A stretch of DNA of 64,000 nucleotides from Thermoanaerobaculia bacterium (GCA_044226625.1 JBGAGQ010000008.1:1-64000); one strand, 5' to 3'; counted from the stretch's first letter, positions 1-25,676 are shown. The notes: generated by a model from the sequence alone, not told the origin. Program-made: numbers and translations.

Positions 1-3000
1 GCAACTCCACGCCCAACGCCTCGCGCACTCGCGACACGATCCGCATCGCCAGCAGCGAGTGGCCTCCCAAGTCGAAGAAGCTCTGGCCGCGACCCACCGA
101 AGGCCGGTGCAGCACCTCCGACCAGATCCCCGCCAAAACCGCCTCGACCGCCCCCCGAGGAGACTCTTCGATCTCGACACCTGCGGCCCCTTCGACGTCC
201 GCCGGCCGCGGCAGCGCGCGTCGGTCTACCTTGCCGCGCGAGGTTCGCGGTAGGGATCGCATCTCGACGAAAGCCGAGGGCACCATGTAATCCGGTAGCA
301 AAGTCGACAGACTGGAACGGAGGTCGAAGGTCCGGACGGCGGCACCTTCCATCGCGACGTAGTACGCGATCAATCGCCACCCCCCTGTTGGATTGGCTAG
401 CGCGACCACCGCGGCTTCAGCGATCGCCGGTAGGCGGCCGAGCGCAGCCTCCACCTCCCCAGGCTCGACGCGAAAGCCACGGATCTTGACCTGTTCATCG
501 ACTCGGCCGACGAAATCGATCTCACCGTTCGCAAGCAGCCGTGCGAGGTCACCCGTCCGGTAGAGCCGGGATCCCTGCCGGCGCGAGTAGGGATCGGGCA
601 CGAAGCGCTCCGCGGTGAGACCCGGTCGTCTCGCATATCCACGCGCCACGCCGTCACCACCGATGAACATCTCGCCGACGACGCCCACTGGCGCGGGTCG
701 GCCGCGGTCGTCGAGGATTCGAATCGAGGCGCCCGGGATCGGCGTACCGATCGACACCTGCCCGGACGCCGAGGTCCGCCCGTTCGAAACCTCTTTCCAA
801 GAGCCCACAATCGTCGTCTCGGTTGGCCCATAGGTGTTCACCAGTCGGATCCGCGGTCCAACCGAGCGGGACCAGGCCGCGAGGGCTCCCGGCAGTGCCC
901 GTTCGCCCCCCAAGATCGTCAAACGGATAGAAGCCGGGGGGGCACATCGCCTCTCGTCGATCGTCGAACAGAGCTCGTGCCAGAGAGCCGTCGGAAGATC
1001 GAGCACCGTGATCTGACGAAGCGCGCAGCCAAGCAGGAACGCCTCCGACGAGGCCAGCATCGCCGGATCGCGAAGCGCAAGCTCGCCGCCGCCAAGGAGA
1101 GCGAGAAAAGTCTCTTCCACGCTGATGTCGAAGCTCGGCGCGGCCAACTGGAGCACCCGGTCGCGAGGTGACCCTTCGTAGACCGCTTCCATCGAGTGGA
1201 AATAGGAACGAAGGCTCGAATGGGACAACGTCGTGCCTTTGGGTCGCCCGGTCGAGCCGGAGGTGAACAGCAGGAACGCGCCGTTTTCCGGGGCGATGGT
1301 TCCCGTTCGACGGTCCGTGATGCCGGCGGGGCGAAGCGCGATCCCGTCCGTTGCCTCTACTCCGGCTTCGAGAACGAACTGGACCCCCGCCTCGACTTGC
1401 AGCTCGACTCGCCGCGCCGCCGGACTTTCCGGGTCGAGCGGAACGCAGATTCCACCCGCCGCGAGTACACCGAGAACCGCGACGATGCGTTCGGGTGTCA
1501 ACTCGAAGACTACGGCGACGGGAGCCTCCGGCCCGACCCCGACGGTCCTCAGGCGCTCGGCAAGCCTTTCGGCCCGGACGCGCAGCTCTCCATAGCTCAA
1601 GACCGAGGTATCGGTCGAAACCGCCGCCGCATCGGGAGCTCCCACGGCTCGAGCCAGGAACGCTTCGATCATAGAGCCCGATCCGGATTCAGATGCGGGC
1701 GTGGCCGTCGCATTGAGGATCTGAGAGATTTCCTCGTCACGAAGCCAGGGCACCTCGGACGACGCCCGCTGGGGGTCGGCCAAAGCCGCTTCCATCAGGG
1801 TCGAGAAGCAACTTGCCCACCGGGGCAAAGTGGACGCTTCAAACAGCTCGATCGGCGCGATCAACCAGCCGGTGGGGCTATCCCCTTCGAGCAGAACGGT
1901 CAGATCGAGGTCGAATTTCGCTTGAGTCGCACCACCGTCGACCGCGGTTTCCCGAGGCGCCGCCGAAGCCGCGGTAGTCAAATCGAAGCTCGCTTGAAAC
2001 AGAGGAGTTCGGGCGAGGCTTCGCTCCGGTCGCAGAAGCTCGACCAGGCGCTCGAAAGGAACCTCAGAGCAGGATTGCGCTTCGAGCGCCGCGCTCCGGA
2101 TCCGCTGGACCAGGTCCTTGAAGCTGGGCTCTCCCGAGAGATCCGCGCGAATCACGAGGGTATTGACGAAGAGACCGATCAGCCCTTCGATCTCGACACG
2201 GTTCCTCCCCGCACTCGGGATACCTACGCAGAGATCCGCCTGCCGCGCCAGACGGGAGAGAAGGAGCGAATAGGCCGCGAGCACGACCAGGAACGGAGTC
2301 GCCTCCATGCTTCGCGCGAGCTCGCGGATCGACCGGCCTAGGTGGTCGCTCCACCGAATCTCCTCGGCCACACCCAGCCCCGAAAGCGCGGCGGGCCGCG
2401 GCCGATCCACCGGAAGATCCAATGTGAACCGAGCCCCGTCGAAGCGCTCGCGCAGAACGGTGAGCTTGCCGGCCAACGCCTCGTCGGTAAAAGTAGCCCG
2501 CTGCCAACTGCAATAGTCGGCGTAGGTGATCGGCAGCCCGGCGAGCGAAGCCGGCGTACCCCGGACGGCGGCTCCATAGAGCAGCTGTAGCTCTTCGCCG
2601 AAGATCTTCATCGACCAGCCGTCGACCGCGATGTGGTGGATCGTCCCTGCGAGTAGGTGATCGTCCTCCGCGAGGTCGACGATTAAGAAGCGCAGGACAG
2701 GTCCCGTACCGAGTCGGAACGGCCGCAGAAACTCGAGGCTGGCAGCGCGATCCGCATCCGGCGACCGTAGATCGTCTGGTAGCGATCGAAGATCGAGTCG
2801 CGCCATCGGCACCCTGCCCGAGGCACCGATCACCTGGACCGGAGAGTGATCGATCATTCGGTAGGAGGTCCGAAGCGTCGGGTGCCTCTCGACCAGCGCC
2901 AGAATCGCGGAACGGCAGGAGGAGGCGGAGAATGCACCGTGAAGGCGTCGCGCAAACGGTACGTGGTAGAGCGCCGAGCCGGGCTCCAAGCGATCGAGAA

Positions 3001-6000
3001 ACCAAAGCCGCTCTTGCGCGAACGAAAGGGGAATAGGACCACTCTGCCTGCTCGCCGGAATGGCGGCCGCACGAGGCTCGGCGCGCCCCTGGACGAGCTC
3101 GTCGAGCGATTTACGCCGCCCCGTCGACAGCTTCGCGCGCCGAGCCTCGAGAGCCTTCCGGCGCGCGGCGATAGGATCCTCGTCGCCCCGGGATTTCCTG
3201 GTGCTTTCAGACGGTGGTCGGTCGCTCTCGGACCTCCCGCTCGCGAGGTACTGCTCTCGATCGAGTCGGCCATCCGCCCGGCGCCTCCCAAAGCCGACCG
3301 GTCCTCCTTCTTTCGCGCTCAACGTACCTCGAACCCCGATCGGCGCCGGCTCGCCATAGCGGTCGAACACCGTTCCGTCCTCCCTCCATTCGAGGAGCAG
3401 TTGGTGCCTTTCCGCCGCCGATAGGGAGGACAGCTGAGACAGCCGGTCGTCAGGCGACCCAGCGAGCGCGACATAGAGGCGCTCCAGATGGCTCACGAGA
3501 CGAAGTGCAGTGCTTCGATCGAACAGATCCGCGTCGAAGCCGAGAGTCACGGAAAGTCCACGAGAGCCTTCCGAAAGCGACAGCACAAGATCGAAGGGCA
3601 CGGAACTGTCACCGCCCGCCGCGCTTTGAATCTCGAGCCCCCTCAGCCGGAGAGGCTCGCTTCCGCTCGCGTTCGTCAGTACGAGAAGTGCACGAAGCAG
3701 CGGCTGCCGATCGTTTTCCGGATCTCGCCCGAGCGCCGCAACGAGCTTTTCGAACGGAAGATCCCGGTGGTCGAACGCCCCCAAGGTAACCTCCCGCACT
3801 CGCGAGACCAGGTCGCCACCGAGAAGATCTCCGCTCAGATCGGTGCACAAAACGAGCGTGTTCACGAAGCACCCGATCAGGCCTTCGAGCTCCGTACGAT
3901 CGCGATTCGCGATCGGAGTACCGACCACGATTCGATCTTGGCCACTCTGCCGGTGTAGGAGCAGTTGGAAACCGGCCAGAGCTACTGTGAACAGGGTCGC
4001 CCCCCGAGCCCGCGCGAGCTCTTTCAAACGATCTCGGGCGGCCGGAGGCAAGCGAACCGACACGGAACCAGGGTGCGCCGACTGCCAGCGCGCGCGAGGG
4101 CGATCCATCGGCAAGTCGAGAATTGGAGGCGGCCCGCCGAGGACCCTTCGAAAAAAGTCGATTTGCTCGTCGAGAACCGCCCCTTGGAGCCAGCTCCGCT
4201 GCCACGCTGCGTAGTCGGGATATTGGAGCGGCAGCGGCGAAAGCGGAGATGGCGCGCGATCGAGCGCAGCGGAATAGAAAAGCGACAGCTCGCGGCCGAA
4301 GATACCTAGAGACCAACCGTCGTATACCGCGTGGTGAAGGCCCAAGAGCAGGACATGGTCGTCCGAGCCCAGTCGAAGCAAACGCGCCTTCAGGAGAGGT
4401 CCCTTCGCGAGCGAGAACCGCCAACGCTCGGGCAAGCCGACGATACGTTCGCCCTCCGCTCGTCTCCGATCGATGCCGCCGAGGTCGACGAGCGGCAGTC
4501 GAAAGACGGACTTCGGCAGGATCCTCTGCTCGAGGCAATGGCTGCCGAGCGCGAACGTCGCTCGAAGCGCCTCATGACGCCCCCAGATTGCTCCCAGCGC
4601 CGCCTGGAGGGCCGCGCGATCGAGAGCTCCGCGCAGTCGAGGAGCAGGCGCGCTGGCGTAGTGGCTATTGCCCGGGTGCAGTTGCTCGACGAGCCACATC
4701 CGCTCTTGAGCGAACGACGCCGGGAGCGGACGGTCCCGGCGGGCGGAGGTCAGCGGCGGCTGAGAGATCCCCGCTCGCTCGGCGCGCGCAAGGTCGATTC
4801 GCGCCGCGAGCCCGGATACGGTCGGCGTCCGAAAAAAGTCGCGCAGGGAAAGGCGCACGAGAAGGGCTTCATGAATTCTCGCGACGGCCCGCGCAGCAAG
4901 TAGAGAATGCCCGCCGAGGTCGAAGAAGTTCGCCTCCGGCGACTGGACCGGTACCGCCAACACCTCCGACCAGATTCCGCCGACGATCTCCTCGAGCGGT
5001 GATCGCCAGGTCTCGCCTTCGACCGAGCGCTCGCTATCCTTCTTGGGTTCGGGGAGGGCCTTGCGATCCAGCTTGCCGCTCGGCGTTTTGGGTAGAGCGG
5101 CGAGAAAAACGAAATCGGCCGGCAGCATGTACTCCGGGAGGACCTTCTGAAGCCCAATCCGGAGCTCCGCCGACGTCGCGTGCGACCCGCTCTCCGCGGT
5201 TGCGACGTAGGCGACGAGGCGAGGCACCCCGCCCGCCCCTGACCGGACCGAGACGGCGGCCTCGACCACACCCGGCTGGCCAGCGAAAGCCGCTTCGATT
5301 TCTCCCAGCTCGATGCGGAATCCTCGCACCTTGACCTGGCGGTCCAAGCGCCCCAGATAATCGAGGCGTCCGTCCGCGCGAAAACGGACCCGATCGCCGG
5401 TCCGATAGAGCCTACCGCCGAGACGGCCGCTCCAAGGATCGGGAATGAAACGCTCGGCCGTCGTTTCGGGGCGCCGCCAGTAGCCGCGCGCGAGACCCGC
5501 TCCCCCCAAGCAGAGCTCGCCGAGCACGCCGATTCCGACCGGCATTCCGGTCCGGTCGAGAACGTATCCTTGGGTGCCTTCGATCGGTCGCCCGAGGGAC
5601 ACCGCGGCGGCAGGGTCGCGCGCGATGACCTCCTCGGTCGAATAGGTCGTGTCCTCGGTCGGGCCGTAGAGGTTCAACAACCGACCGGCGCCCGCCGCGA
5701 AGACTCGATCGGCGAGCCATCGAGGAAGCGGTTCGCCCGCGAGGTTTACCGTGAGGAGGCCTCCCGGAAGATCGCTCGACCGCAGCAGCTCCGCCATGGC
5801 CGAAGGGACCGTGTTGATCAACGTCACCTCTCCGCGTGCCGCAAGTGCCGGTAAGGCCAACGCGTTCTCGGCCAGGATCACTCGGCCGCCGGCGGACAGG
5901 GGGGCGAACAGCTCAAAGACCGAAAGGTCGAAGCAGATGGACGTCGCCGCGAGCACGCCCGAGAGCTCTTCGCGATCGAAGCGGTCGAGCGCCCATCTCA

Positions 6001-9000
6001 GCAGCGCCACGGACGACTCATGAGCGATCGTCACGCCCTTAGGAAGACCCGTCGACCCCGAGGTATAGATGACATACGCGAGATTAGCTCCGGTCGCGCG
6101 AGCTCGAGGCCGCGGTGCGATGGAATCCGACAGGTCCTCGACCTCCAGCCGTGGACCGTGCCAATCGTCGAGAATCTCGCGGTTCGCTCGCGCGCTCACC
6201 AGGAGCGAAGCCTGGGAGTCCTCCAGCATGAAGCGCAAGCGTTGCCGCGGATAGGCAGGGTCCAGCGGGACGTAGGCGGCGCCCGATTTGAGCACCCCCA
6301 AGAGGGCCGCGACCAACGTCGGAGTCCGTTCGAGACAGACCGCGATTCGCGACTCCGGACCGGCGCCCAGCTCGCCCAAACGAGCGGCGATCGCGTTCGC
6401 CCTCCCTTCTAGCTCGCCATAGGTCCAACGTTTGTCGCCCGCGATCAGGGCTTCGGCCCTCGGATCGAGGTCGACTCGCCTTTCGAATCCTTCGTGGAGG
6501 CAACCGGCCACACCTTCGGCCCCGCGATCGTTCCATTCGAACGTGGACTGAAATCGTTCCGCGGCCGAGAAGGCGGGCAACTCGCCGAGAGTTTGGTCAG
6601 GAGCGAGCACGGCGGCTTCGAGCAAGGCGTGGAATCCCAGCTCCCACCGCCGCACCGTTGCCGGATCGAAGAGGTCCGTCGCGTACTCGAAAGCGCCGCG
6701 GAGCCCTCCCTTCCACTCCTCCAGAAACAATGTGAGGTCGAGCTTCGACGTGCCGCTGTCCAGCTCTTCCCAGGACAGCTCCAGATCCGGCAATTTCAGG
6801 GCAGGAAATGGAACGTTCTGAAACGCGAGCGACACCTGAAAGAACGCGTTGCGGCTCGGATCTCGCGGTGGGTTGAGGATCTCCACCAAGCGGTCGTTGG
6901 TGATCCCCTGATTCGCATAGGCGCCGAGCACCGTGCCCCGCACTCCTTCGATCAGTCGTTGGAAAGACTCGCGGGGATCGACGCGCGCCCTCAACATCAG
7001 CGTGTTGACGAAATAGCCGACGACACTTTCGAGCTCAGGGCGGAGCCTTCCAGCAACTGGCGAGCCGACGAGGAAATCGAGCTCCCCTGAGAGGCGATGC
7101 ATCTGGACCTCGAACGCCGCGAGCAGAACCATGAAGAGCGTCGCGCCGTTTCGCGTCCCGAGATCGCGCAATTCAGAAGTCAACCCCGGCCGTACCGCGA
7201 AACGATGATGGCGGCCGGTCATGCTCAGCTCGGCGGGGCGCGGTCGGTCGGCCGGCAACTCAAGCCAGTCGGGCACGCCGGAAAGCTCGCGGCGCCAAAA
7301 CTCGACCTGCTGCTCCTCCTCCGGGGTGGCCAACTGCCAAGCGACGAAGTCGGTGTACTCGACGGAGGGCTCGCGCAACCGAACCGGTGTCCCGGAAGCG
7401 GCGGCCGAATAGACCGCGATGACGTCGGCGAGTACCAATCCGATCGACCAGCCATCGCTCACGATGTGGTGCATGTTGAAGAGTGCCCAAGATCTTCGCG
7501 AGTCGACGAGACAGAGCGCCACGCGCGCCAAAGGCAATTCGTCGAGGCGGATCGGCCGCGACGTCTCCGTTCTTGCGATACGCGTGGATTCGCGGTCCGC
7601 CACGGGCGTGGGGAGCGCTCTGAGGTCTAGGGTTGCGGCGCGTGCCGGGCGGACAGGCGAAAGCTCCTGAAAAGGCACTCCTTCCGCCTCTCCGATCCGC
7701 ATCCAGAATACGACGTGGCGACGGAGCACCGCCTCGAGCGAAGCGATCATCGCGCCAGGCCGCAGAGCGCCGGTGAAACGCATTCGCAGGGGAATGTTGT
7801 AGGCGGCCGAAGCCGGGAATTCGCGCGCCACGACCCACAGGGATCGCTGGGCGAGAGACAACGGCTGGCGGCCTCCTGCCGCAAGCCTGGCGATGGGCCT
7901 TGGCACTTCGGAGGAACCGCCCAAACGATCGATGGCGGCCGCCAGGTCGGCAACGGTCGAAGCCTCCATGAAAGCCGCGAGCGAGACCCGTCTCGCGAGC
8001 TCGAGCCGGATCGTCTCGATGGCGCGAGCGGCGAGCAGCGAATGACCGCCAAGATCGAGAAAGCGGTCGTCGCGACCTACCTCCCGCACCTCGAGCACCT
8101 CGCCGAGGATCCGAGCCAAGGTTTTCTCCGTAGGCGTGTGGAAAATCGCCGGCTCCCTCGTGGCACCCGAGTCGGGCTCGGGCAACGCCGCGCGGTCGAG
8201 CTTGCCGTTTGCCGTTCGAGGGAGCTTCTCCAGCTCGACGAACGACGTCGGCACCATGTACTCCGGAAGCTCCGAGCCCATGAACCGGCGGAGCGCCGAG
8301 AAATCGAGGTCGCTTCCTTCCCGAGCGACGACGTACGCGACCAGACGCTTTGGCCCACCCTTGCCGTCGTCGCGAGCCACGATCGCCTCTTCCTGAACCG
8401 AGGGGTGGCGGGCCAACACGGCGTCGAGCTCGCCGAGCTCGATGCGAAATCCGCGAATTTTGACCTGGTGGTCGGAGCGCCCGAGGAAATCCAACCGACC
8501 GTCGGGCAGCTGGCGGACGACGTCTCCCGTGCGGTAGAGGCGCTCTCCCGAGCCTCCGCCCACGCCGTCGGGCACGAAGCGATCGGCGGTCAACTCGGGT
8601 CGATTCCAATAGCCTCTGCAGAGCCCCTCGCCCCCGAGGAACAGCTCTCCGACGAGACCGGCGACGACGGGATCTCCCCAACGGTCGAGGACGAACGCCC
8701 GCGTTCCGGGAAGGGGCCGCCCGATGGTCACCGGGCATTCGGGATTCCGCTCGACCTCGTCCCAGGTGGAGTAGGTCGTGTCTTCGGACGGCCCATAGAG
8801 GTTGCACAGCCTTGCGACTCCTGCGGCATACACCCGATCGGCGAGCGCGCGCGGCAGCGCCTCTCCCGCGAGGTTGACCGTGAGGACGCCGTTCGGAACG
8901 GCCCCCTGGCGCAGCAGCTCCGCCATCGCCGAGGGCACCGTATTGACCAGTCGAACCTCGGATCGAGCCGGCAGATCGGGTAACGCGAGGGCATTGTCGG

Positions 9001-9700
9001 CTAGAAGGACGCGGCCGCCGAGGGAGAGTGGAACGAACAGCTCGAAGATCGACAGGTCGAAGCAGGTCGAGGTGGCGGCCAGCACACCGCAAAGCTCGGC
9101 GGCATCGAACTCCCGCGCCGCCCAGGCGACAAACGAAACGGCGGAGCGGTGCTCGATCGCGACGCCTTTCGGCTTACCCGTCGAGCCGGAGGTATAGATC
9201 AGATATGCCAAATTTCCGGCCGTGGCGCACCGGGGCGGCCGCGGCGCCGGAGAGCTCGAGGAGAAGATCGCTTCCACCTCGAGACGCTCTCCCTCCCAGC
9301 CGACGAGCTGATCGAGGAGAGAGCCCTGAGTGATCAGAATTCGGGCTCCCGAGTCGTCCAGCATGTAGCGAACCCGCTCCTGCGGATACTTGGGATCGAG
9401 GGGCACGTAGGCCGCTCCAGCCTTGAGAACTCCGAGCAGAGCGGCGACCAGGGCGGCGTTGCGTTCGAGATGGACACCCACCCTCGTGTCCGGACCGGCC
9501 CCTGATGCAATCAAGCGGGAAGCGACCCGATTCGCCGCGTCTTCGAGCGCCCGATAGCTCCAACGTTCCTCGCCGACCACCAGCGCCTCGGCCTGCGGAG
9601 CGAGATCGGTTTGCCGCTCGAAGCTCCAGTGCAGGCAACCTTCGGCATCGAGCGTACCGAGAGCTTCCGCCGAGCTCTTCGGCGCTAGGGTTTCGTTCAT
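1..9700 (-). CDS. NRPS, 3'-truncated by the window edge (>3230 aa): A(Ala)-T-C-A(Ala)-T-C-[vestigial A/linker]-C-A(Lys-like)-T...
   Basis: Not in the ORF track because it has no stop in the window. ATG at 9700 overlaps the upstream TGA (ATGA). Translates MNETLAPKSSAEALGTLDAEGCLHWSFERQ..., with YTSGSTGKPKG, GGHSL, HHIVSDGWS (~7450), YTSGSTGLPKG (~6050), GGHSL (~4905), HHAVYDGWS (~4320), HHIAVDGWS (~2625), FTSGSTGRPKG (~1250) and GGHSLLAMR (~60). Frame checked by hand at 4738, 3478-3058 and 58. Pocket codes: DLFNNALTYK twice (Ala) and DIEDIGTIVK (basic/diamino acid-like). Confidence 0.93.
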   Translation of the reverse strand, partial: MNETLAPKSSAEALGTLDAEGCLHWSFERQTDLAPQAEALVVGEERWSYRALEDAANRVASRLIASGAGPDTRVGVHLERNAALVAALLGVLKAGAAYVPLDPKYPQERVRYMLDDSGARILITQGSLLDQLVGWEGERLEVEAIFSSSSPAPRPPRCATAGNLAYLIYTSGSTGKPKGVAIEHRSAVSFVAWAAREFDAAELCGVLAATSTCFDLSIFELFVPLSLGGRVLLADNALALPDLPARSEVRLVNTVPSAMAELLRQGAVPNGVLTVNLAGEALPRALADRVYAAGVARLCNLYGPSEDTTYSTWDEVERNPECPVTIGRPLPGTRAFVLDRWGDPVVAGLVGELFLGGEGLCRGYWNRPELTADRFVPDGVGGGSGERLYRTGDVVRQLPDGRLDFLGRSDHQVKIRGFRIELGELDAVLARHPSVQEEAIVARDDGKGGPKRLVAYVVAREGSDLDFSALRRFMGSELPEYMVPTSFVELEKLPRTANGKLDRAALPEPDSGATREPAIFHTPTEKTLARILGEVLEVREVGRDDRFLDLGGHSLLAARAIETIRLELARRVSLAAFMEASTVADLAAAIDRLGGSSEVPRPIARLAAGGRQPLSLAQRSLWVVAREFPASAAYNIPLRMRFTGALRPGAMIASLEAVLRRHVVFWMRIGEAEGVPFQELSPVRPARAATLDLRALPTPVADRESTRIARTETSRPIRLDELPLARVALCLVDSRRSWALFNMHHIVSDGWSIGLVLADVIAVYSAAASGTPVRLREPSVEYTDFVAWQLATPEEEQQVEFWRRELSGVPDWLELPADRPRPAELSMTGRHHRFAVRPGLTSELRDLGTRNGATLFMVLLAAFEVQMHRLSGELDFLVGSPVAGRLRPELESVVGYFVNTLMLRARVDPRESFQRLIEGVRGTVLGAYANQGITNDRLVEILNPPRDPSRNAFFQVSLAFQNVPFPALKLPDLELSWEELDSGTSKLDLTLFLEEWKGGLRGAFEYATDLFDPATVRRWELGFHALLEAAVLAPDQTLGELPAFSAAERFQSTFEWNDRGAEGVAGCLHEGFERRVDLDPRAEALIAGDKRWTYGELEGRANAIAARLGELGAGPESRIAVCLERTPTLVAALLGVLKSGAAYVPLDPAYPRQRLRFMLEDSQASLLVSARANREILDDWHGPRLEVEDLSDSIAPRPRARATGANLAYVIYTSGSTGLPKGVTIAHESSVALLRWALDRFDREELSGVLAATSICFDLSVFELFAPLSAGGRVILAENALALPALAARGEVTLINTVPSAMAELLRSSDLPGGLLTVNLAGEPLPRWLADRVFAAGAGRLLNLYGPTEDTTYSTEEVIARDPAAAVSLGRPIEGTQGYVLDRTGMPVGIGVLGELCLGGAGLARGYWRRPETTAERFIPDPWSGRLGGRLYRTGDRVRFRADGRLDYLGRLDRQVKVRGFRIELGEIEAAFAGQPGVVEAAVSVRSGAGGVPRLVAYVATAESGSHATSAELRIGLQKVLPEYMLPADFVFLAALPKTPSGKLDRKALPEPKKDSERSVEGETWRSPLEEIVGGIWSEVLAVPVQSPEANFFDLGGHSLLAARAVARIHEALLVRLSLRDFFRTPTVSGLAARIDLARAERAGISQPPLTSARRDRPLPASFAQERMWLVEQLHPGNSHYASAPAPRLRGALDRAALQAALGAIWGRHEALRATFALGSHCLEQRILPKSVFRLPLVDLGGIDRRRAEGERIVGLPERWRFSLAKGPLLKARLLRLGSDDHVLLLGLHHAVYDGWSLGIFGRELSLFYSAALDRAPSPLSPLPLQYPDYAAWQRSWLQGAVLDEQIDFFRRVLGGPPPILDLPMDRPRARWQSAHPGSVSVRLPPAARDRLKELARARGATLFTVALAGFQLLLHRQSGQDRIVVGTPIANRDRTELEGLIGCFVNTLVLCTDLSGDLLGGDLVSRVREVTLGAFDHRDLPFEKLVAALGRDPENDRQPLLRALLVLTNASGSEPLRLRGLEIQSAAGGDSSVPFDLVLSLSEGSRGLSVTLGFDADLFDRSTALRLVSHLERLYVALAGSPDDRLSQLSSLSAAERHQLLLEWREDGTVFDRYGEPAPIGVRGTLSAKEGGPVGFGRRRADGRLDREQYLASGRSESDRPPSESTRKSRGDEDPIAARRKALEARRAKLSTGRRKSLDELVQGRAEPRAAAIPASRQSGPIPLSFAQERLWFLDRLEPGSALYHVPFARRLHGAFSASSCRSAILALVERHPTLRTSYRMIDHSPVQVIGASGRVPMARLDLRSLPDDLRSPDADRAASLEFLRPFRLGTGPVLRFLIVDLAEDDHLLAGTIHHIAVDGWSMKIFGEELQLLYGAAVRGTPASLAGLPITYADYCSWQRATFTDEALAGKLTVLRERFDGARFTLDLPVDRPRPAALSGLGVAEEIRWSDHLGRSIRELARSMEATPFLVVLAAYSLLLSRLARQADLCVGIPSAGRNRVEIEGLIGLFVNTLVIRADLSGEPSFKDLVQRIRSAALEAQSCSEVPFERLVELLRPERSLARTPLFQASFDLTTAASAAPRETAVDGGATQAKFDLDLTVLLEGDSPTGWLIAPIELFEASTLPRWASCFSTLMEAALADPQRASSEVPWLRDEEISQILNATATPASESGSGSMIEAFLARAVGAPDAAAVSTDTSVLSYGELRVRAERLAERLRTVGVGPEAPVAVVFELTPERIVAVLGVLAAGGICVPLDPESPAARRVELQVEAGVQFVLEAGVEATDGIALRPAGITDRRTGTIAPENGAFLLFTSGSTGRPKGTTLSHSSLRSYFHSMEAVYEGSPRDRVLQLAAPSFDISVEETFLALLGGGELALRDPAMLASSEAFLLGCALRQITVLDLPTALWHELCSTIDERRCAPPASIRLTILGGERALPGALAAWSRSVGPRIRLVNTYGPTETTIVGSWKEVSNGRTSASGQVSIGTPIPGASIRILDDRGRPAPVGVVGEMFIGGDGVARGYARRPGLTAERFVPDPYSRRQGSRLYRTGDLARLLANGEIDFVGRVDEQVKIRGFRVEPGEVEAALGRLPAIAEAAVVALANPTGGWRLIAYYVAMEGAAVRTFDLRSSLSTLLPDYMVPSAFVEMRSLPRTSRGKVDRRALPRPADVEGAAGVEIEESPRGAVEAVLAGIWSEVLHRPSVGRGQSFFDLGGHSLLAMRIVSRVREALGVEL

Positions 9701-12700
9701 TCCTCTTCGGCCTCGAGGCGGTCGAGGAGGATTTCCTCGACCGCGACCGCTTGCACCTCGACCGTCGGCGCCTCGAAGAACGACACGAGAGAAAGCTCGA
9801 CGTCGAGGCGCTCGCGGATCCGCGCCAGAACTTGCGTCGCCAGCAGGGAATGCCCTCCGAGCTCGAAGAAGTTGTCCCGGACTCCAACCCGCGCAAGACC
9901 GAGCACGTCGCTCCAAATCGAAGCTAGCAACTGCTCCATCTCGGTTGCGGGCTCCGAGAAGGAAGCATCGAGCGTCGGGCGCTCGACGTTCGGCGCCGGA
10001 AGGGCTCTCCAATTCACTTTGCCGTTCGCCGTGATCGGCAACGCCGCCAAGAAATCGAAGCTCGCCGGCAGCATGTGCTCCGGTAGGTTCTCGGCGAGAG
10101 ATCGCCGTAGCTCGCTCGCGCTAGGACGGTCGGCCGCGACGAGGTAGGCCGCCAGTCGCAGGTCTCCCGAGCCGCCGGGTACCACTGTGACGACGGCATC
10201 GGTCACGCCTGCCAGCCCTCGAAGAGCGGCTTCGATCTCCCCCAGCTCGATTCGGAAACCGCGGACTTTGACCTGTCGATCGATTCGGCCCAGGAACTCG
10301 AGCGCGCCGTCGGGTCGAATACGCGCAAGATCTCCGGTTCGATAGAGCCGGCCTCCCGGCGTCGTACCGAGCGCGTCGGGAACGAACCGCTCGGCGGTCA
10401 CGTCGGGCCGGTCGAGGTAACCGCGCGCCAGACCGACGCCGCCGATTGCGAGCTCCCCGGGTACCCCGACTGGAACCGGGCCGCCGCCCGGCGCGACCAC
10501 ATCTACTGTGATACCACGAATGGGGCGTCCGATCGGTGGCCCCCAGGGGAACGGACCGGTCTCGCCCGTGAGGTCGATTTCGGTCGCCACAATCGTCGCC
10601 TCGGTCGGACCGTACGTGTTGACCAACCGGACCTTCGTTCCGGCGCCTTGCTGCCAGAGCTGGAGCCTGTCCAGGGTCGCCCGCTCCCCGCCGATGATAA
10701 CCAACCGCAAAGTCTCCGGCAGAAGGGTTTCGCCCGCGGCGAGCACCGCCGCGATCTCGCCCCAGTAGACCGTAGGGAGGTCCAGGACCGTGACGCCGAG
10801 CTCGCCACAACGCCGGAGAAACACGGCGGGAGAATTCAACATTTCGTCGTCGCGCAACACGAGGGCTGCACCGCTCGCGAGGGCCGGGAAGATCTCCTCC
10901 GCCGCCGTGTCGAAACTAATGGAGGCGAACTGCAACACCCGGTCGTCGTCGGTCAAACCGAACCGTTCGATCGCCGAGGCCACGTAAGCGCCGAGTGCCG
11001 AGCGCGACACGCCGACGCTTTTCGGCCGACCGCTCGACCCGGAAGTGTAGATCGCATAGGCGAGGGTCTCCGGGGCCGTCCACACGGGCGCCTCCGCCCC
11101 TTCGTCTTCCACGACTCCGAGAGACAACAGATCATCGAGAAGAAACATCCGCTGCTTGCTGGAATGGATCGTTGGGGCGGACGAGCTCGCGACGATCCAT
11201 GCAACCCCGGCGTCTTCGAGCATGGCCCTCTTCCGCTCGATCGGATAGGTCGGATCGATCGGCAGATACGCTGCCCCAGCCTTCCAAATGCCGAGGAGAG
11301 CCGCGATCAGCTCCGGCGAGCGGGCCGAGGAAACCGCGACAAGATTCTCCGCTCGGACGCCAGCACGAACCAGTCTCGTCGCCAGGAGGTCGGCGGCCCG
11401 GTCGAGATCTCCGTAAGACAGCTCGATGCCGTGAGAACGTAGGGCAGGCGCCCGAGGCCGTCTGCGCGCTTCAGCCTCGAAGCGCGAGAGCGCATCGAAG
11501 TAGGCGGACGGTGGACCTCCCGAACGCTGGCCCAACAGCTCGGCTCGCTCCTCGGCTCCGAGCAGTGGCAGCTCCGAAAGCCTCTGGCCCGGCGCCGCCA
11601 GTGCGCCGGCGAGCAGAACCGCGAAGCGCGAACCCCAGCGCTCGGCCGTCGAATCGTCGAAAAGATCGCGGTTCCAGCCCAGCGAAGCGACCAGTTGGTC
11701 ACCGATCTGCAGGAACCAGAGGGTCAAGTCGAAGTGGGCGCGACCGACCTGGAACGAATCGTCTCCCTCGACGACCGGACGCGGCCCGGAGCCGGCGCCT
11801 CCGGTGTTCTGAAACTCCAACATCACCTGAAACAGGGGCGTGTGCGCGAGGCTGCGCTCGGGTCGGATCTCTTCGAGCAGCTTTTCGAACGGCAGATCCT
11901 CGTGGGCGAACGCACCGAGCGTCACCTCGCGTACTTGCTCCAGGAAACGCCCGAAACCGATGGCACCCGACGGTTTCATTCGTAAAACGAGGGTATTGAC
12001 GAAAAACCCGATCAACCCTTCGATCTCCGGAAGCCCTCGGCCCGCCGTGTAGGTGCCGACGCTGATGTCCTCGTCGTGGGTATGGCGGAAGAGCAGGGCC
12101 ACCCAGGCTCCGAGCAGGACCATGAACTGCGTCATGCCTTCTCGCTGACCGTGGCCGCGTACGGCCGCAAGCAGCTCGGGGCCGAGCCCCAGCCGTCGGC
12201 GCGCGCCCCGATGAGTCTGGATCGGAGGCCGCGGTCGATCGAGCGGCAGATCGAGCACGGGGGGCGCGCCGGCCAGGCGCCCGCGCCAATAGTCCAGGAG
12301 ATCTTCGAGCGCGGGGCCCTCCAACCAGGATCGTTGCCAAGCGGCGAAATCCGCGTACTGCACCGGCAGCGGCGCAAGGCTCGGGGCGACGCATGCCAAC
12401 GCGGCCTGATAGAGGATGGACAGCTCACGGATCAGGAGCGTCATCGACCAACCGTCGGTCACGATGTGGTGAAGCGTTAGGAAGAGTCGACTTTCAGTAG
12501 GACCGAGTACGAGCCAGGCCCTCAGGAGCGGCCCTTGGGCGAGGTCGAACGGAAGACTCTGCTCGCGCATCGCCGCGACGCGCGCCGCGGCATAGGCCAT
12601 GTCACCGGAAAGGCCTCCGCAATCGACCACCGACAATGGCAGCGGCGCGGCAGCCAGGATTTCCTGGTGCGGCTCGCCTCCGTGGCTCGCGAAGCGGGTA

Positions 12701-15700
12701 CGCAGGACTTCGTGGCGGCGCAGCACCTCCGAAAGCGCCGCCGAGATCGCGGCGGCGTTCACACGACCGGGTAAACCGATCGAGGCCGGCAGGTTGTATG
12801 CCGGATTGCCCGGCTCGAGCTGGTCGAGGAACCATTGGCGAGCCTGCGAGAACGAGAGCGGCAGCGGCAGATCCCTCGAGGCTCGTTCGATCCGGGGGAC
12901 CGGAACCCGATTCTCGGACGCCGCTCGGGCCGCGCCGACGACCGCCGCCAATCCGCCGACGGTCGGCAGCTCGAAGAGCTGCGTCAGGGAGACCTCGACC
13001 CCGAACGCGCGGCGGACGCGCGAGGTGATCTGGATCATGCGGAGCGAATGTCCACCCAGCTCGAAGAAATCCTGATCTATCCCGACCCGCTCCAGTCCGA
13101 GCACTTCGCACCAGATGCCGGCGAGGATCTCCTCGATCCCGTTTCTCGGCGCCAGAGGCTCCCGGCTCGGCTGGTCGGACACCACGTCGGGCATCGGCAA
13201 GGCGTTGCGGTCGAGTTTGCCGTTGCGGGTCAACGGCATTGCCTGCAAGGTGACGAATCGGCTCGGTACCATGTAGGCCGGCAGGCGCTCGGCGAGGTAG
13301 GTCTCTATCTCCCCGAGGCTCGGGAAGGTCTCGGTCTCGAACGTCACCAGATAAGCGACCAGATGCAGGTCGCCCGTGGCGAGAGCGCGGATCAGGACGG
13401 CCGCCTCGCTCACCGCCGGATGGCGCGAAAGAACGGACTCGATCTCGCCAAGCTCGATTCGATGCCCCCTGAGCTTCACCTGATGATCGATCCGGCCGAG
13501 GAAATCGAGGTCGCCGCAGGGTTGGCGGCGCGCCAGATCGCCGGTGCGGTACATCCGGGCGCCCGGCCGCCGGGTGAAGGGATCCGGAACGAAGGCCTCG
13601 GCCGTACGACCTGGATCGTTCAGGTAGCCGCGACCGACCCCGGCTCCCGCGACGCACAGCTCTCCGGGAACGCCGATCGGCGTGGGCTCGAAATCCCGGC
13701 CGACCGTCACCAGCGCCATCTCGCGCAACGTTCGGCCGATCGAGATCGACTCAGCGTCCTCGGCTGGAGCACAGACGAGATGGAAATGCGACACGTCGTC
13801 CGAGCATTCGGTCGGCCCGTAGGCGTTGACCAGCGGCACAGACGGGAAGAGAGCGAACCAGCGCCGCGCTAGATCGGGAGGCAACGCCTCTCCGGTTGGG
13901 ATGATCCAGCGCAAGCCAAGAAACTCCTCGCGCTCGACGTCTCCTCGCTCCACCCCCTCTACGACGACCCGGAGCAGTGAGGGTACCAGCTCCGCCACGG
14001 TGATCCCGAGCCTGCGGATCGCATGCGCGAGACGGAGGGGCTCGTGTGAGGTTTCGTCATCGAGGATCACCGTGCGACCCCCAACCAACAACGCGGCCAG
14101 GAACTGCCAAATCGAAATGTCAAAACACTGGGAGGCGGTCTGAGCGATCGCGTCTTCGGGCCCCAGCTGAAGGTCCTCGACCTTCGCGTAGAGGTGGTTG
14201 ACCATACCCCGGTGCTCGAGCATCGCCCCTTTGGGAAGGCCGGTCGAGCCCGATGTGAAGATCACGTAGGCGAGATTGGACGCCAGGGGCGCGAGCGGGA
14301 TCACATCGGGTGATGAGCCGCCGCCCATGACGTCCGCCAGCTGGACGACAGGCGGCGCAGCCTCTCCCAAAGGCTCGACGGCCGCGAGGGCCGCCGCCTC
14401 GAATTCGGCTTCCGCAACGAGAAGACGCACTCCAGCGAGGCGCAAAACTTGAGTCCAGCGAAGCGGCGGGTGCGCCGGGTCGAGCGGGAGGTAGGCCGCG
14501 CCCGCCTTCATGGCACCGAGAATGGCGACGAGGAAATCGGCGCTTCGCTCCGCGACGATCGCGATCAGTGAATCAGGGCCGAGCCCCCGAGCCGCCAAAA
14601 CTCGCGCCGAAATATCGCTCGCCCGGTTCAGTTCGGCATAAGTGAGCTCGCGTCCCCGGTGTAGCACGGCGATTCGTTGAGGGGTGCGCAGCGCTTGAGC
14701 TCGGAATAGGTCCGGCAGGGTGCCCGCCTCGTCGGCCGCCACCGAGGTGTCGTTCCATTCGACGAGAGTTTGATGGCGCTCCGAGGGAGCGAGCTTCGGC
14801 AAGGAGGAGAGGGGTAGTTCGGACCTTCCGCTGAAGGAGACGAGCAAAGTCGCAAGGCCGTCGAGCAAACGCCCCGCGTCTATCACGTCGACACGCGTGG
14901 TGTCGTAGGACAGGCGGAGGGCGAGCTCCGGGCCTGGATAGGCGAACAACGCCAGAGGCTGGTCGGCCTGGTCGAGCCCGCGCGCACCATGGAGCAGCTC
15001 TTGAGATTCGCGACCACGCGCGCTCCGACGCTGCAGGACGACCAGAGACTCGAATAGGGGACGACCGGGAGCGACCTCGCTGGCGAGTCGAACCCGCGAG
15101 AGCGGAACGTGCTCGAATTCTCGGACCGAGCCGACGTTGCGTTGCAGGTCGACGAGCCAGCGGCCGAGCCGTTGGAAAGGCGTTGCGCGCACGCGAAGGG
15201 GAACGGTCGCGATGAACAAGCCCGCAATCGATTCGACCTCCGCGAGGTCGGACGGACGGCCCTGGCTGACCATCCCGAACAGAACGTCCTCGTCGCCGCT
15301 CCAGAGCGAGAGCGCCAACGCCCAGGCGGCAACCACCGCCGTATGAATCGAGATGCCGATCTCCCGGCAGGCCTCGGCCAGCAAGTCGGTCTCGGTCTTC
15401 GAAAGCGCGACGCCGCGTCGCCCTGCCCGGGCTTCTAAGACCGGGTTGGGGGGCGCCAGGAGCGCGGGCGAAGTGGGCGCCTCGAAACCTGCAAGGTACG
15501 AGCGCCAGAAGCCGTCGCCGGCTCCGGGCTCTCGGCGATCGAGCCACGCAAGAAATTCTCGATACTGGGGGGCCGGCTCAGGAACCGGCTCGCGTCCGGC
15601 TCGAAGCTCGGCGTAGAGCGAGGTCCACTCGGTCGACAAGAGATCGACGCTCCAGGCATCGAGCAGGGCATGGTGCCAGCTCCACGCCAAGATCGACCGG

Positions 15701-18700
15701 CCGCCTCCCCGGAATACAAGGGAGAGCCGCGCGATCGGCGCCCGCGCGAGATCGAGGGCCCGACGCTCGGAGATTAGGAGGTCGTTCCAACGCACCTCGG
15801 CCTCGGACGGCTCGAGGTTGCGCCAATCCGCCACGAATAGGGGCACCTCGACTCTCGGCTCGATGATCTGGATCGGCTCGTCATGCCTTTCCCATTCGAA
15901 ACGAGCGCGCAAGATCGAGTGCCGAGCAAAGACCATCTCCCACGCCCGACGGAGGGCGGCGACGTCGATCTCCTCGTCGAACGAGTAGATCTCCTGGTTG
16001 AAATAGACCCCCGAACCCGGATTGAGCAGGTGGAACACGAGCATCGATTCCTGCATCGGCGAAAGGCGCCAGACCGAACCGCCCTCAAAGGTCGCGGCTG
16101 GAACAGAGGTCGGGCGCACTTCCACGACCGACGAAGCGAGCGCGGCGATGGTCGGCGCGGCGAACAGCTCTCGCGGTTCGATCCCGAGACCGAGGCGGCG
16201 CGCGCGGGACACCAGGCGCAGAATCAGAATCGAATCGCCGCCGAGCGAGAAGAAGTTGTCTCGAACGCCGATCCGCTCGTGACCCAGGACCTCGCGCCAA
16301 AGCTCCACCAGCCGTGCTTCGATCGGCGAGGTGGGGGGATCGATCTCGCGCTCGGCTTCGAATGCCGAAGTCGACGTCGGCAAGGCCCGTCGATCCACCT
16401 TGCCGTTCGCCGTCTTGGGCAACTCAGCGAGAACCCCCAACTCGGAGGGCAGCATGTAGTCCGGCAGGCGCTCCCTGAGATGGGCCCAGAGAGCGCCCCG
16501 CGCCGGCTCGCCGCCATGCCGAGGCGCCAACCAGGCGATCAACCGCGGCCCTCGTTCGGCGTGCTGCACCACCACCGCCGCCTCGGCCACCTCGGGGTGC
16601 GCGACGAGCGTCGATTCGATCTCACCGAGCTCGATCCGAAAGCCGCGCACTTTGACCTGGCGGTCCGAGCGACCGAGGAATTCGATTCGGCCGTCATGCC
16701 GGAAACGCGCTAGGTCACCCGTGGCGTAGAGCCTTGCCCCAGGCCGACCGCTCCAGGCGTCCGGGACGAATCGCTCCGCGGTCAAGCCCGGCCGACGGTG
16801 ATAGCCGCGGGCGAGCCCCTCCCCTCCGAGGTGCAGCGCACCGGCGACGCCGACGCCCACCGGGGTTCCCCATGGATCGAACACGAAGGTACGCCCGCCC
16901 GCGATCGCTCGGCCGATGGTGACGTCGGCTGAATCGACGGCGACATCGTCCCCGGTGGAGTAGGTCGTGTCTTCCGTCGGTCCGTAGAGATTGCACAGTC
17001 GCGTCGCTCCGGCTGAAAACACGCGATCCGCCAACGATCTCGGCAAAGCTTCACCGGCTAGGATCACGGTGCGGGCGGAGGGCGGGAGGGGAGCCTTGAA
17101 GAGCAGCTCGCTCATCGCTGAAGGCACCGTGTTCACCAACGTCACCTGATCGCGCGCCGGCAGATCCGGCAGGGCAAGGACGTGATCGGCGAGGACGACG
17201 ACTCCACCGACGGCCAGGGGCGCGAAGAGCTCGAAGATCGAAAGGTCGAAGCAGATCGAGGTCGAGGCGAGCACGCCGGAAAGTTCGCTCGGCGAAAACG
17301 ATCGAACCGCCCACGCGATGAAAGCCGTGGCCGAGCCGTGGGTGATCTCAACGCCCTTGGGGCGGCCGGTCGATCCCGAGGTGTAGATCAAGTAGGCGAG
17401 GCCGGCAGGGTCGATACGACGCGCCCGAACCGGAGGTCCTCCCGAGAGCGCCTTCACGTCGAGCCGCCGTCCGTGCCAATCGCCGATGGCGTCGGCGGTT
17501 TCAGGGTCGGTCAGAAGGACCGCCGCGCCCGAATCATCGAGCATGAAGCGATTCCGGTCCCGCGGATACTTGGGATCGATCGGAACGTACGCCGCTCCCA
17601 CCTGGAGCACCGCGAGGATCGCGGCCACCAGATCTACATCACGCGAGAGGAGGATCCCGATCCGCGCCTCGGCATCGAGGTCTAGATCGGCGAGACGCGA
17701 AGCGATCGCGGCAACCCGCCGGTCGAGCTCGGCATAGGAGACACGCTCGGTCCCGACCACTACGGCAAGGGCCTCGGGAATGCGCCTCGCTGTCGTCGCG
17801 AACACCTCGTAGAGCGAGGGAGATGACGGTAAAACCGCTGCCGTGCCGCTCCACTCGCGGGTCACCTGCGCGAGCTCCGGTGCCGACAGCAACGGCGCGG
17901 CGTCGAACGTCGAATCGGGCCACGCAGCCATTGCCGCGAGTGTCCGCTGGTACCAACCGCCGAGCACTTGCGCCTGATCCCTCCCCGTGCGCGTGGTGTC
18001 GTGCTCCAGACTCAAGGTGATGTGCCGGCCCTCCTCCGCGGGTGCGAACACCACTTGGATCTTGAAGCTCGTTCCCTCTCGGCTCTTGAAACGGAGGACT
18101 TTCAGGTCGCCGCGATCGAGAACGCGATCAACGACATGGAACTGGATGTAGTTGAACACCAGATCGAAGAGCGTATCGACCCCGAGGTCCTTGTGGATCT
18201 GGGCCAGTGGGTAGCGCCGATAGGGGGGCATTCGGCGTTCCGCATCGAAGACCCGGCGCATCAGATCGAGCCAGGAAGAAGGCTCGAGCACCATACGGAA
18301 AGGTAAAGCGTTCAAAAACAGGCCGCGAAGCCGATCGCCGTCCGGAACCTCGGGGCGACCGTTCGCCACGATCCCCGCGAGCACGTCGGCGCTGCCGCTC
18401 GCCAGGGCGAGGACGCGGAGGTGTGCTGCGAGGAGGAGCGACTTGAGCGGTACCGCCGCGCGGCGCGCGACTCGGCGCAGGTCGGAGGCCAGCTCGGTCG
18501 AGATCACGACCCGGTGCGACTGGATACGTCGGCCGGCGGAGGGTACCGGCGTGGGCCAGGACGGCAACGCGGATAAGGTCGCGCCTTCGAGCTGCAGGCG
18601 CCAAAACTCGCGGCATTCCGGTGACGCGATGGTCTCTCGCTCCAGGGCCACGAAATCGCGGTACGTCACGGCCAATGGGGGCTCGGGCGCTCTCGGCTCG

Positions 18701-25400: not shown

Positions 25401-25676
25401 CGCGGGCTCGATCCCTTCTTCGATCGTGGGTCCGACAGGTTCCGCGATCACCTGCACCGGCATGGAAACTCCGGGAAGGAGTCTGAACTCGGTCCGCAGG
25501 ACCTCGAACTTCTCGACGAGCTCCCCCAGAGCTCGGGAGACTCGCGGCCGGTCGAACGGACCGTCGATTGCGACCACCATCCGCGCGCGAAACGCGTTGC
25601 CTCCATCCGAGCACATCCGACGCCACAACCGACGCTGTTGCGGCGAGAGCCGAAAACCTTCATGCAACTCGATCAC
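22485..25676 (-). CDS. NRPS module with an N-terminal inactive C-like interface domain: I-A(unknown, acidic-like)-T plus docking helix (1063 aa)
   Basis: Starts GFRLSPQQRRLW; HHxxxDG is replaced by LSSLCMDLAG (~25281-25310); FTSGSTGRPKG; GGHSL; code DVRNLGHITK. GTG start with GAGG upstream. Confidence 0.92.
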   Translation of the reverse strand: MIELHEGFRLSPQQRRLWRRMCSDGGNAFRARMVVAIDGPFDRPRVSRALGELVEKFEVLRTEFRLLPGVSMPVQVIAEPVGPTIEEGIEPAEWLPQEIGAGLPLRCLLVPRGGNRHELVLELSSLCMDLAGLDNLFRELVRAYVAEPTADDAEPPMQYPDLAEWQNELLEGEEGQAGRDGWSQVDYAEISARALPGMKPSLGRFEKRTLPIATPNSTYASARALAQSEGVDLDVVLLAAWQAVLARSGDHPALAVALVCDGRRYAEVREALGLLARHLPLVFEVDDRITFRSRLGSLAEEVNDVRRRQAYFSWGGREEDAPRFRFAFEASILPEPILFEGTRFTLQERSATTDRAAVTLVATESAQGLAMEIRFDPAEVEESLARTISSRFVHLLASAVEDPEREVGLLGMFDAVERLSLLTELANGELPPGEPMPAHRRFEHWAREHGQLTALLWDGGEMSYETLDREANRLARSLLDLGVRAEVPVGILLERSSALIVAVLATLKAGGAFVPLDPDYPPQRLEYLLEASEAKLVIGDSKHLDSLPLGPGVRAFAIDEQREAIAANSAEAPGVDLDLSNLAYVLFTSGSTGRPKGVMISHAALDQYLRWLGSVYPVTPGEHHLLKTPLSFDVAVREIFWPLSYGATMVIAAPGGHRDSAYLASLIARREVVVANFVPSMLALFLDQPDVGNFRSLRRVLSGGEALPLFLRNRFFDLLPASLHNHYGPTETTITATACGLDPHDRRPTVSIGRPAAGAEVLVVNSAFEPVPLGVPGEIVIGGIGLARGYVGRPAATAAGFVPNPHATSTGERIYRTGDLARRVAGGDLEFLGRKDEQVKIRGFRIELGEIEHVLLAHEGVKMAVVTSAPDPRGDRSLAAYVVASAEGAMPKLAELREFLASRLPDFMVPSALALLPSLPRTPSGKIDRQALPAPNFGAAAEDRGFVEPRSPLEAEVASIWAEVLKLDRVGVEDDFFSLGGHSLLAMQIMSRLQEAFRTQLPLVLLFQAPTVDRLSAAMQELEERPGEMARIARALKRLRELSSADALAMLEEHSNAVSRGGT

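Follow-up and report, generated by a model that had tools for sequence, protein, structure and literature searches.

A nonribosomal peptide synthetase subunit with a bare adenylation start and two condensation domains in a row: apparent module loss and a possible convergence of two chains on lysine

What becomes of a growing peptide when the next subunit of its assembly line opens without a condensation domain, and what are two consecutive condensation domains for when they appear farther down the same subunit? Both questions are raised by g1, a nonribosomal peptide synthetase (NRPS) gene from a Thermoanaerobaculia bacterium (GCA_044226625.1). It lies at the edge of a 64,000-nucleotide stretch of DNA (JBGAGQ010000008.1:1-64000; hereafter, the window) that represents the first 64 kb of contig C113 in a metagenome-assembled genome of 6.6 Mb and 133 contigs, with many open NRPS ends. 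A preliminary description of this DNA had noted that the upstream NRPS ends in a carrier (T) domain with no TE, that the coupled gene begins with a bare adenylation (A) domain, and that its domains follow the order A-T-C-A-T-C-C-A-T, where C stands for condensation; from this, it had proposed that two chains meet on a diamino acid. Each part of this architecture is borne out. We take g1 to be a genuine and intact NRPS subunit that is not colinear and that has come from C-A-T modules through the loss of domains. The most economical working model is that two chains converge on its Lys module, which we regard as possible rather than probable.

The start codon of g1 overlaps the TGA of the preceding gene, g2, in an ATGA (positions 9700-9697), and the two genes are translationally coupled; overlaps of the same type are found at g6/g5 and g3/g2. 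A motif scan and translation show no TE or C domain after the last carrier of g2 (T4), which is followed only by a short acidic tail and the stop codon. In g1, 46 residues precede the first A-domain core motif, with no C domain in front. Pfam recognizes three stretches each of Condensation, AMP-binding, AMP-binding_C, and PP-binding, and the motif scan gives the same domain order, with all core motifs of a modular NRPS present: A domains, T domains with the GGxS serine, and C domains with HHxxxDG. The domains are numbered here as A1-T1-C1-A2-T2-C2-spacer-C3-A3-T3 (Table 1). This layout departs from that of the linear, colinear (type A) NRPS at two points, as g1 begins with an A domain after a gene that ends in T, and as C3 follows C2 with no A or T in between. 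It is the only protein of the genome with two C domains and neither T nor E between them. The two HHxxxDG motifs, located in the preliminary description near positions 4320 and 2625, are found there intact. The same description was right that no A or T separates the tandem C domains, but it treated them as contiguous and overlooked a spacer of 123 amino acids.

This spacer holds the clue to the tandem. It opens with a normal C-A linker, LSAAERHQLLLEW, directly behind which stands an A-domain relic, TVFDRYGEPAPIGVRGTL. An hmmsearch that takes the 12 A domains of the cluster as its profile gives the relic 7.1 bits, which none of 1,000 shuffles equals (the best reaches 4.6), and the match occurs only in the reading frame of g1. 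The spacer also contains an Arg/Lys-rich stretch, and a later segment looks, by eye, like the part of an A domain just ahead of the KIRGFRIE motif. No carrier domain is found in it: there is no GGxS motif, and the spacer scores -1.2 bits against a profile made from 79 T domains found in this genome. A degenerate T domain can be dismissed, given this negative score and the poor alignment of the spacer to C-T-C units of the genome, as can a T or A domain hidden in the other two frames, which contain nothing of the kind. No usable look-alike of the spacer is found in the ESM Atlas, and no paralogue in the genome. Because the relic follows the C-A linker of C2 and the T domain is gone, C2 can be recognized as the C domain of a former C-A-T module, the A domain of which has evidently been deleted almost wholly in frame, along with the loss of T. 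A similar trace is seen at the gene start, where the first 14 residues of g1 (and of A1) correspond in an alignment to the opening half of the C-A linker that precedes A2, indicating that A1 formerly stood behind a C domain. Both oddities of g1, the bare A1 start and the tandem C domains, apparently come from ordinary C-A-T modules. We discount the idea that the Ala modules were recently duplicated or were copied from a donor elsewhere in the genome: A1 and A2 are 61% identical with saturated synonymous divergence (dS), and no paralogue of any g1 domain in the genome is closer than 61%.

The C domains of g1 belong to a single type. In the C-domain phylogeny that the preliminary description had called for, built here from 84 near-full-length C-like domains of this genome (with no external references, and with the supports not inspected), C1, C2, and C3 all fall in the large clade of elongation-type domains that are preceded by GGHS-type carriers. 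They are apart from the post-E/GGDS clade, the N-terminal starter-like clade, the clade of the His-less domain of g3, and the E domains, so the tree provided no special clade for C2 or C3. The closest solved structures for C2 and C3, all matched over the full length, are Txo1, Txo2, 5U89, and the TycC PCP-C didomain; the surfactin starter C domain is absent among the PDB matches of C3 at E <= 1e-20. C2 and C3 are both complete and keep HHxxxDG. As the preliminary description held, the first tandem C is intact: C2 retains all motifs and is the best-scoring Pfam Condensation stretch of g1 (residues 1659-2102, covering profile positions 5 to 456 of 456). The arrangement of two C domains before one A-T pair, which characterizes dual priming of the icosalide type, is found in g1 (C2-123 aa-C3-A3-T3); the A-proximal domain, C3, is not of the starter type, judging from the tree and the PDB matches. 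Behind C2, the carrier that directly follows the C domain in A-less C-T modules is missing.

Substrate pockets were read at GrsA-PheA anchor positions, with all 12 A domains of the cluster aligned, and came out as the preliminary description had given them. A1 and A2 share the code DLFNNALTYK, which we take to be an Ala code, although a text search found no paper on it; A3 has DIEDIGTIV(K). Searches with the full pocket codes found no paper, and searches with six-letter stems had a single relevant match, a preprint on isonitrile lipopeptides. That preprint gives DIEDVGSVVK and DTEDVGTVVK as the codes of Rv0101/MmaA and ScoA; in ATP-PPi exchange, L-Lys was the preferred substrate of both MmaA and ScoA (bioRxiv 10.1101/121228). 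At these anchors, A3 agrees with each of these Lys codes at 7 of 10 positions, and the last A domain of g2 (A4, DTEDIGTIVK) agrees with DTEDVGTVVK at 8 of 10. The best guess for the A3 substrate is Lys, with Orn or another diamino acid being possible. The diamino-acid acceptor of the preliminary description is supported insofar as A3 and A4 lie near assayed L-Lys codes, while its exact identity depends on those anchors.

These parts can be combined into the following scheme. The C domain in front of A1 is missing, as are the A and T domains behind C2 except for the short relic. A1-T1-C1-A2-T2, a complete two-module arm, would build Ala-Ala (with Ala as the putative substrate), while the upstream lipopeptide line, from g8 to g2, ends on T4, a carrier without a C domain of its own. 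T2 is wired in cis to the donor side of C2, which would pass Ala-Ala to the Lys on T3. C3 is wired in cis to A3-T3 with its donor side free, and T4 of g2 would feed it the lipopeptide in trans. Either Lys would then be acylated at each of its two amines, giving a branched product, or two alternative products would be made with a common downstream end, which is probably the Cy-A(Cys-like)-T-TE protein of contig C45 (see below). This convergent scheme is favored because it uses every domain with its cis partner. Precedents for convergence exist in the tandem C domains of icosalide biosynthesis and in the double Lys acylation on isonitrile lipopeptide NRPSs. In its fullest form, the proposal is a two-headed line, in which two elongation-type C domains would attach a lipid/polyketide-primed peptide and the Ala-Ala arm to the same Lys, at its alpha and epsilon amines; such a branching device would arise from a colinear synthetase simply through the deletion of a C domain and an A-T pair. 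We consider this full form unlikely.

A complete line needs one C domain per aminoacyl carrier. The window encodes 12 A-T pairs and 12 C domains, a count that omits the E domain as well as both His-less C-like domains and includes the second C domain of g2 (NHxxxDG), and one of these C domains is out of place. As 12 C domains fit 12 A-T pairs only if both tandem C domains are used, each of them would have a job. The equal counts, the single operon, and the translational coupling of g2 and g1 would also suit a linear, colinear product, in which one tandem C domain joins the chain on T4 of g2 to Ala on T1 and the other joins Ala-Ala on T2 to Lys on T3. This is improbable, as the donor side of C2 is tethered to T2 and the acceptor side of C3 to A3-T3, while T1 lacks a C domain that would use it as an acceptor in cis. 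We know of no precedent for a linear product made by way of an out-of-place C domain.

Could the arrangement be an artifact? The genome was assembled from a metagenome and has many similar NRPS domains, its contig C113 does end within a repeat (window 1-214), and either the T/A boundary or the C-C junction might have been joined wrongly from repeated NRPS sequence. Such a chimera is highly improbable here. In run X1, one Logan contig of 15,647 bp spans window positions 185-12000 with two letter differences and no gaps. X1, which is labeled bioreactor metagenome, contains every word sampled and probably represents the source sample, which makes this contig the work of a second assembler on the same reads and not a set of independent reads. 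Short contigs of three other runs (X10, X2, and X3) match pieces of the region at 97 to 99.7%, and matches from other runs include 3312-3557 and 2886-3037, at the two spacer borders. Since no paralogue exceeds 61%, neither odd junction has a repeat that could have been mis-joined. To the extent that it can be checked, the g1 arrangement does not appear to be an assembly artifact.

The contig end is a different matter. Window positions 1-214 correspond to a separate 254-bp Logan contig with a depth of 58, versus 19.9, so that g1 is cut in a repeat of roughly three-fold depth. Among the open contig ends with NRPS motifs, only that of contig C45 starts with a T-domain tail. This contig (L097, 1-9026) encodes a T-tail-Cy-A-T-TE protein of 1352 aa, the A pocket of which is Cys-like when judged by eye. 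Behind this gene come those for an SDR, a MacB-type permease, and an ABC ATPase. As contig C95 ends in a near-identical Cy domain, the continuation of g1 into C45 is likely rather than certain. If C45 is the end of the cluster, MacB-type permeases flank the cluster on both sides, one on C45 and the other at window positions 56589-59045.

The cut in the repeat, the 133 contigs, and their many open NRPS ends leave room for a hidden partner, such as a stand-alone C domain, a docking protein, or additional modules on unassembled DNA that would take the chain of g2. A stand-alone leader-plus-C protein does exist on contig C28, but it belongs to another NRPS cluster. No stand-alone C gene or other such partner is found upstream of g1 in the window or in the 16 kb of C45, the only candidate continuation, and we consider a hidden partner quite improbable.

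The search for homologous clusters that the preliminary description had suggested returned no orthologous locus in any collection searched. No orthologue of g1 was found in 40 relatives (best match, 37%), in 91 other genomes of the family searched with the C-like domain of g3 (best, 38%), in a one-genome-per-species collection with its own genome excluded (best segment, 53%), or in a collection of 5.8 billion proteins, limited to lengths of 1778 to 5658 aa. In nearly all of the 120 protein matches listed, the local alignment covers 64 to 66% of g1, from residue 1 to about residue 2100, the end of C2. The exceptions among them are P0158 (38% identity, 99% coverage), P0164 (81% coverage), and one match with 51% coverage. 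At the matching place, P0158 has C-[Arg-rich spacer]-T-C-A-T, with the carrier kept. When C2-spacer-C3 is used as the query, the full-length matches in the relatives are C-T-C units at four translated loci (L002-L005), with at most 37% identity. Within this genome, contigs C31 and C6 also contain A-less C-T-C units, whose C-to-C spacing is 570 to 599 aa versus 565 aa in g1. Here and in the relatives, A-less C-T modules often stand in runs, extending up to C-T-C-T-C, and L003 contains near-identical unit repeats.

Strain variants bear on selection in g1. The variants come from contigs of other runs (two from X1 itself), a few being at conserved motifs and perhaps from contigs of other organisms, and the numbers are small. 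Of 36 single-letter differences in g1, 19 are synonymous and 17 non-synonymous, with about 27% synonymous expected at random. From A1 to T2, the synonymous share is 13 of 22 (p = 0.0015 versus the 27% expected), which suggests that the Ala-Ala arm, A1-T1-C1-A2-T2, is under purifying selection.

The architecture of g1 would also fit a deletion scar without a new function. In that case, one C domain, most likely C2, would be silent; g1 would start a peptide of its own (Ala-Ala-Lys-...); and the lipopeptide made by g8 to g2 would be released otherwise, or the line would be broken and decaying. We grade this explanation as nearly as likely as convergence, i.e., as somewhat unlikely when taken by itself. 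The A-domain relic and the missing T domain are what a destroyed module would leave, the arrangement is a singleton with no orthologue, and the synonymous share of variants is low in C2 and the spacer. An A-T gene start is that of a normal initiation module, and at least one other protein of this genome, on contig C6, is likewise A-first, with its first domain at residue 64. Yet C2 has not decayed, while the relic that adjoins it is almost unrecognizable; some 56 kb of overlapping, co-directional open reading frames (ORFs) are intact; g2 lacks a TE, and no other exit for its chain is found in the window; and the C domains and A-T pairs are equal in number.

Several further points weigh against the convergence of two chains on g1. 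C2 and C3 are, by all appearances, ordinary elongation C domains, neither starter-type nor members of a special clade, and their tandem arrangement has a plausible historical explanation in the loss of A and T from a former module. In C2 and the spacer, only one of six variants is synonymous, which fits neutrality, is not significantly unlike the rest of the gene (Fisher p = 0.08), and is compatible with a relaxed, leftover C2. As no orthologue was found in the collections searched, the arrangement shows no sign of being kept over time. No docking element is recognized in g1. The second half of the spacer cannot be claimed as an old N-terminal leader, left by the fusion of a C3-first protein: a profile of eight leaders gives it 0.9 bits, a score that 135 of 500 shuffles equal or better. 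Internal T-C linkers outscored the segment before C3 on this profile, and the BLAST matches that hinted at a leader were inflated by Arg-rich, out-of-frame sequence. The gene leaves contig C113 inside T3, so that its end and anything beyond are absent. The pocket positions and the Ala assignment are provisional, and the argument from the number of C domains is simple counting. Finally, a single carrier-bound Lys with two chains is a prediction from the sequence. Thus, the architecture, cis wiring, and precedents behind the branched reading of the preliminary description stand, but branching itself remains a prediction, the tandem can be explained by module loss, and both of its C domains are ordinary.

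The remainder of the window places g1 at the end of a minus-strand operon of eight co-directional genes that runs from position 56355 down to 2 and has a single lipid-loading start (Table 1). Upstream of g8 lie the divergent MacB-type permease, a WYL regulator, and purA, which marks g8 as the start of the cluster. The acyl-CoA dehydrogenase of g8 is complete, with its N, M, and C domains, and is fused between the ligase-like domain and the ACP, suggesting that this loading protein might provide a desaturated lipid starter. In g6, g5, g3, and g2 (window 9697-48201), the pocket codes of the A domains are DALWLGGTFK, DAKDLGVVDK, DAFFIGGTFK, DAWQYGLIDK, DVRNLGHITK, DVWHISLVDK, DLFNIALTYK, DIWEITADDK, and DTEDIGTIVK. 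Several of these resemble codes for Val, Glu, Ile/Val, Gln, Ser, and Dab, which would make the product a cationic lipopeptide with several diamino acids.

Table 1. Features of the NRPS operon and of gene g1, with positions counted from the first letter of the window
Feature	Position	Strand	Description
g8	52636-56355	minus	Fatty-acyl-AMP-ligase-like domain, acyl-CoA dehydrogenase, ACP
g7		minus	KS-AT-KR-ACP
g6		minus	TubC-type docking domain, then C-A-T-C-A-T-E-C-A-T-KS-AT-ACP-C
g5		minus	His-less C-like domain, then A-T-C
g4		minus	TauD-family oxygenase
g3		minus	His-less C-like domain, then A-T
g2	9697-22488	minus	C-A-T-C-A-T-C-A-T-C-A-T
g2, last A (A4)	9994-11391	minus	Pocket DTEDIGTIVK, same Lys-like type as A3
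g2, end	9697-9996	minus	Carrier T4 (LGGHSL), acidic tail of about 10 aa (...EAEEE), TGA
g1	2-9700	minus	NRPS gene, A1-T1-C1-A2-T2-C2-spacer-C3-A3-T3(partial); from ORF, translation, Pfam
A1	8171-9700	minus	Bare adenylation domain at g1 start; code DLFNNALTYK
T1	7871-8170	minus	Carrier, LGGHSL
C1	6551-7870	minus	Condensation, HHIVSDG, elongation-type
A2	5042-6550	minus	Code DLFNNALTYK; 61% identical to A1
T2	4736-5041	minus	Carrier, LGGHSL; normal T-C linker to C2
C2	3395-4735	minus	First tandem C; HHAVYDG at aa 1789-1795 (nt 4336-4316); without own A or T
Spacer	3026-3394	minus	aa 2103-2225, 123 aa, between C2 and C3
A-domain relic	3314-3373	minus	20 residues, TVFDRYGEPAPIGVRGTLSA; positions 351-370 of the A-domain profile
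C3	1661-3025	minus	Second tandem C; HHIAVDG at aa 2355-2361 (nt 2638-2618); normal C-A linker to A3
A3	206-1660	minus	Pocket DIEDIGTIV(K), Lys-like
T3	2-205	minus	N-terminal part of carrier, LGGHSL; contig breaks here in repeat

Three more C-like domains of the operon have unusual motifs. The N-terminal domains of g3 (window 24357-25676, minus strand) and g5 (window 29573-31252, minus strand) lack HHxxxDG, the place of which is taken by SSLCMDLAG and PPFACDAAG. Each of these genes comes after one that encodes a complete C-terminal C domain, and the oxygenase gene g4 lies between g5 and g3. This His-less domain type is found in 74 of the 92 genomes of the family (G000 counted), often in many copies, and typically opens frames about 1000 to 2000 aa long. 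It may be the "interface" domain of beta-hydroxylase partners, for which antiSMASH 8 mentions profiles. In the second C-like domain of g2 (window 17809-19371, minus strand), NHALWDG replaces HHxxxDG. This domain is preceded by a GGDS-type carrier and forms a separate clade with similar domains on contigs C28, C109, C95, and C67.

If both tandem C domains work, g1 would represent a new route to side-chain-branched lipopeptides, one that requires neither a starter-type C domain nor a stand-alone transferase. A few domain deletions would then suffice to make a convergent line out of a linear one, which would be of direct use for NRPS engineering. Exchange-unit engineering cuts at the C-A linker. 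If g1 is a scar instead, it offers a clear snapshot of module loss, with the A-domain relic still behind its C-A linker. Under both readings, the predicted product is a cationic lipopeptide of an uncultured bacterium from a bioreactor, and no related cluster was found in the collections searched.

Among NRPS papers, a literature search for tandem or consecutive C domains found only the cases of icosalide, PfaA, and poly-amino-acid synthetases. Module 3 of the icosalide synthetase IcoA from Burkholderia gladioli is described as LCL-CI-A-PCP, with an elongation C domain followed by a chain-initiating one (PMC6553374, PMC10510592). IcoA and g1 share two C domains before a single A-T pair, an embedded second chain start, and, as proposed for g1, two acyl donors on one carrier-bound residue. 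However, the A-proximal C domain of IcoA is of the starter type and takes a fatty acyl thioester, whereas both C domains of g1 are elongation-type. In g1, unlike in IcoA, two complete modules within the one protein would supply the second chain as a dipeptide; the side-chain amine of Lys, in place of a hydroxyl, would serve as second nucleophile; and only g1 has a 123-aa relic spacer between its C domains.

Acylation of both amines of a carrier-bound Lys is reported for the isonitrile lipopeptide NRPSs ScoA, MmaA, and Rv0101 (bioRxiv 10.1101/121228). In those enzymes, the same acyl chain is added two times by one C domain, whereas in g1, two C domains would add two different chains. In the fungal PKS-NRPS PfaA, the tandem C1-C2 is of unclear role, with mutagenesis suggesting that both C domains are needed (PMC11731387). 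Like g1, PfaA has two C domains before one A-T pair, though one amide bond would need only one; unlike g1, it is a fungal hybrid without a second chain start. The mannopeptimycin synthetase, with the order C-A-T-E-C-A-T-C-T-E, is cited as a non-linear (type C) NRPS with an A-less C-T module (PMC8949500). Such modules resemble C2 of g1 in having a C domain without its own A domain and in their C-to-C spacing but retain a carrier with its serine, which the g1 spacer lacks. By this comparison, g1 is probably best classified as a non-linear NRPS that combines an icosalide-like tandem of C domains, without a starter-type second C, with the look of an A-less module that has no carrier.

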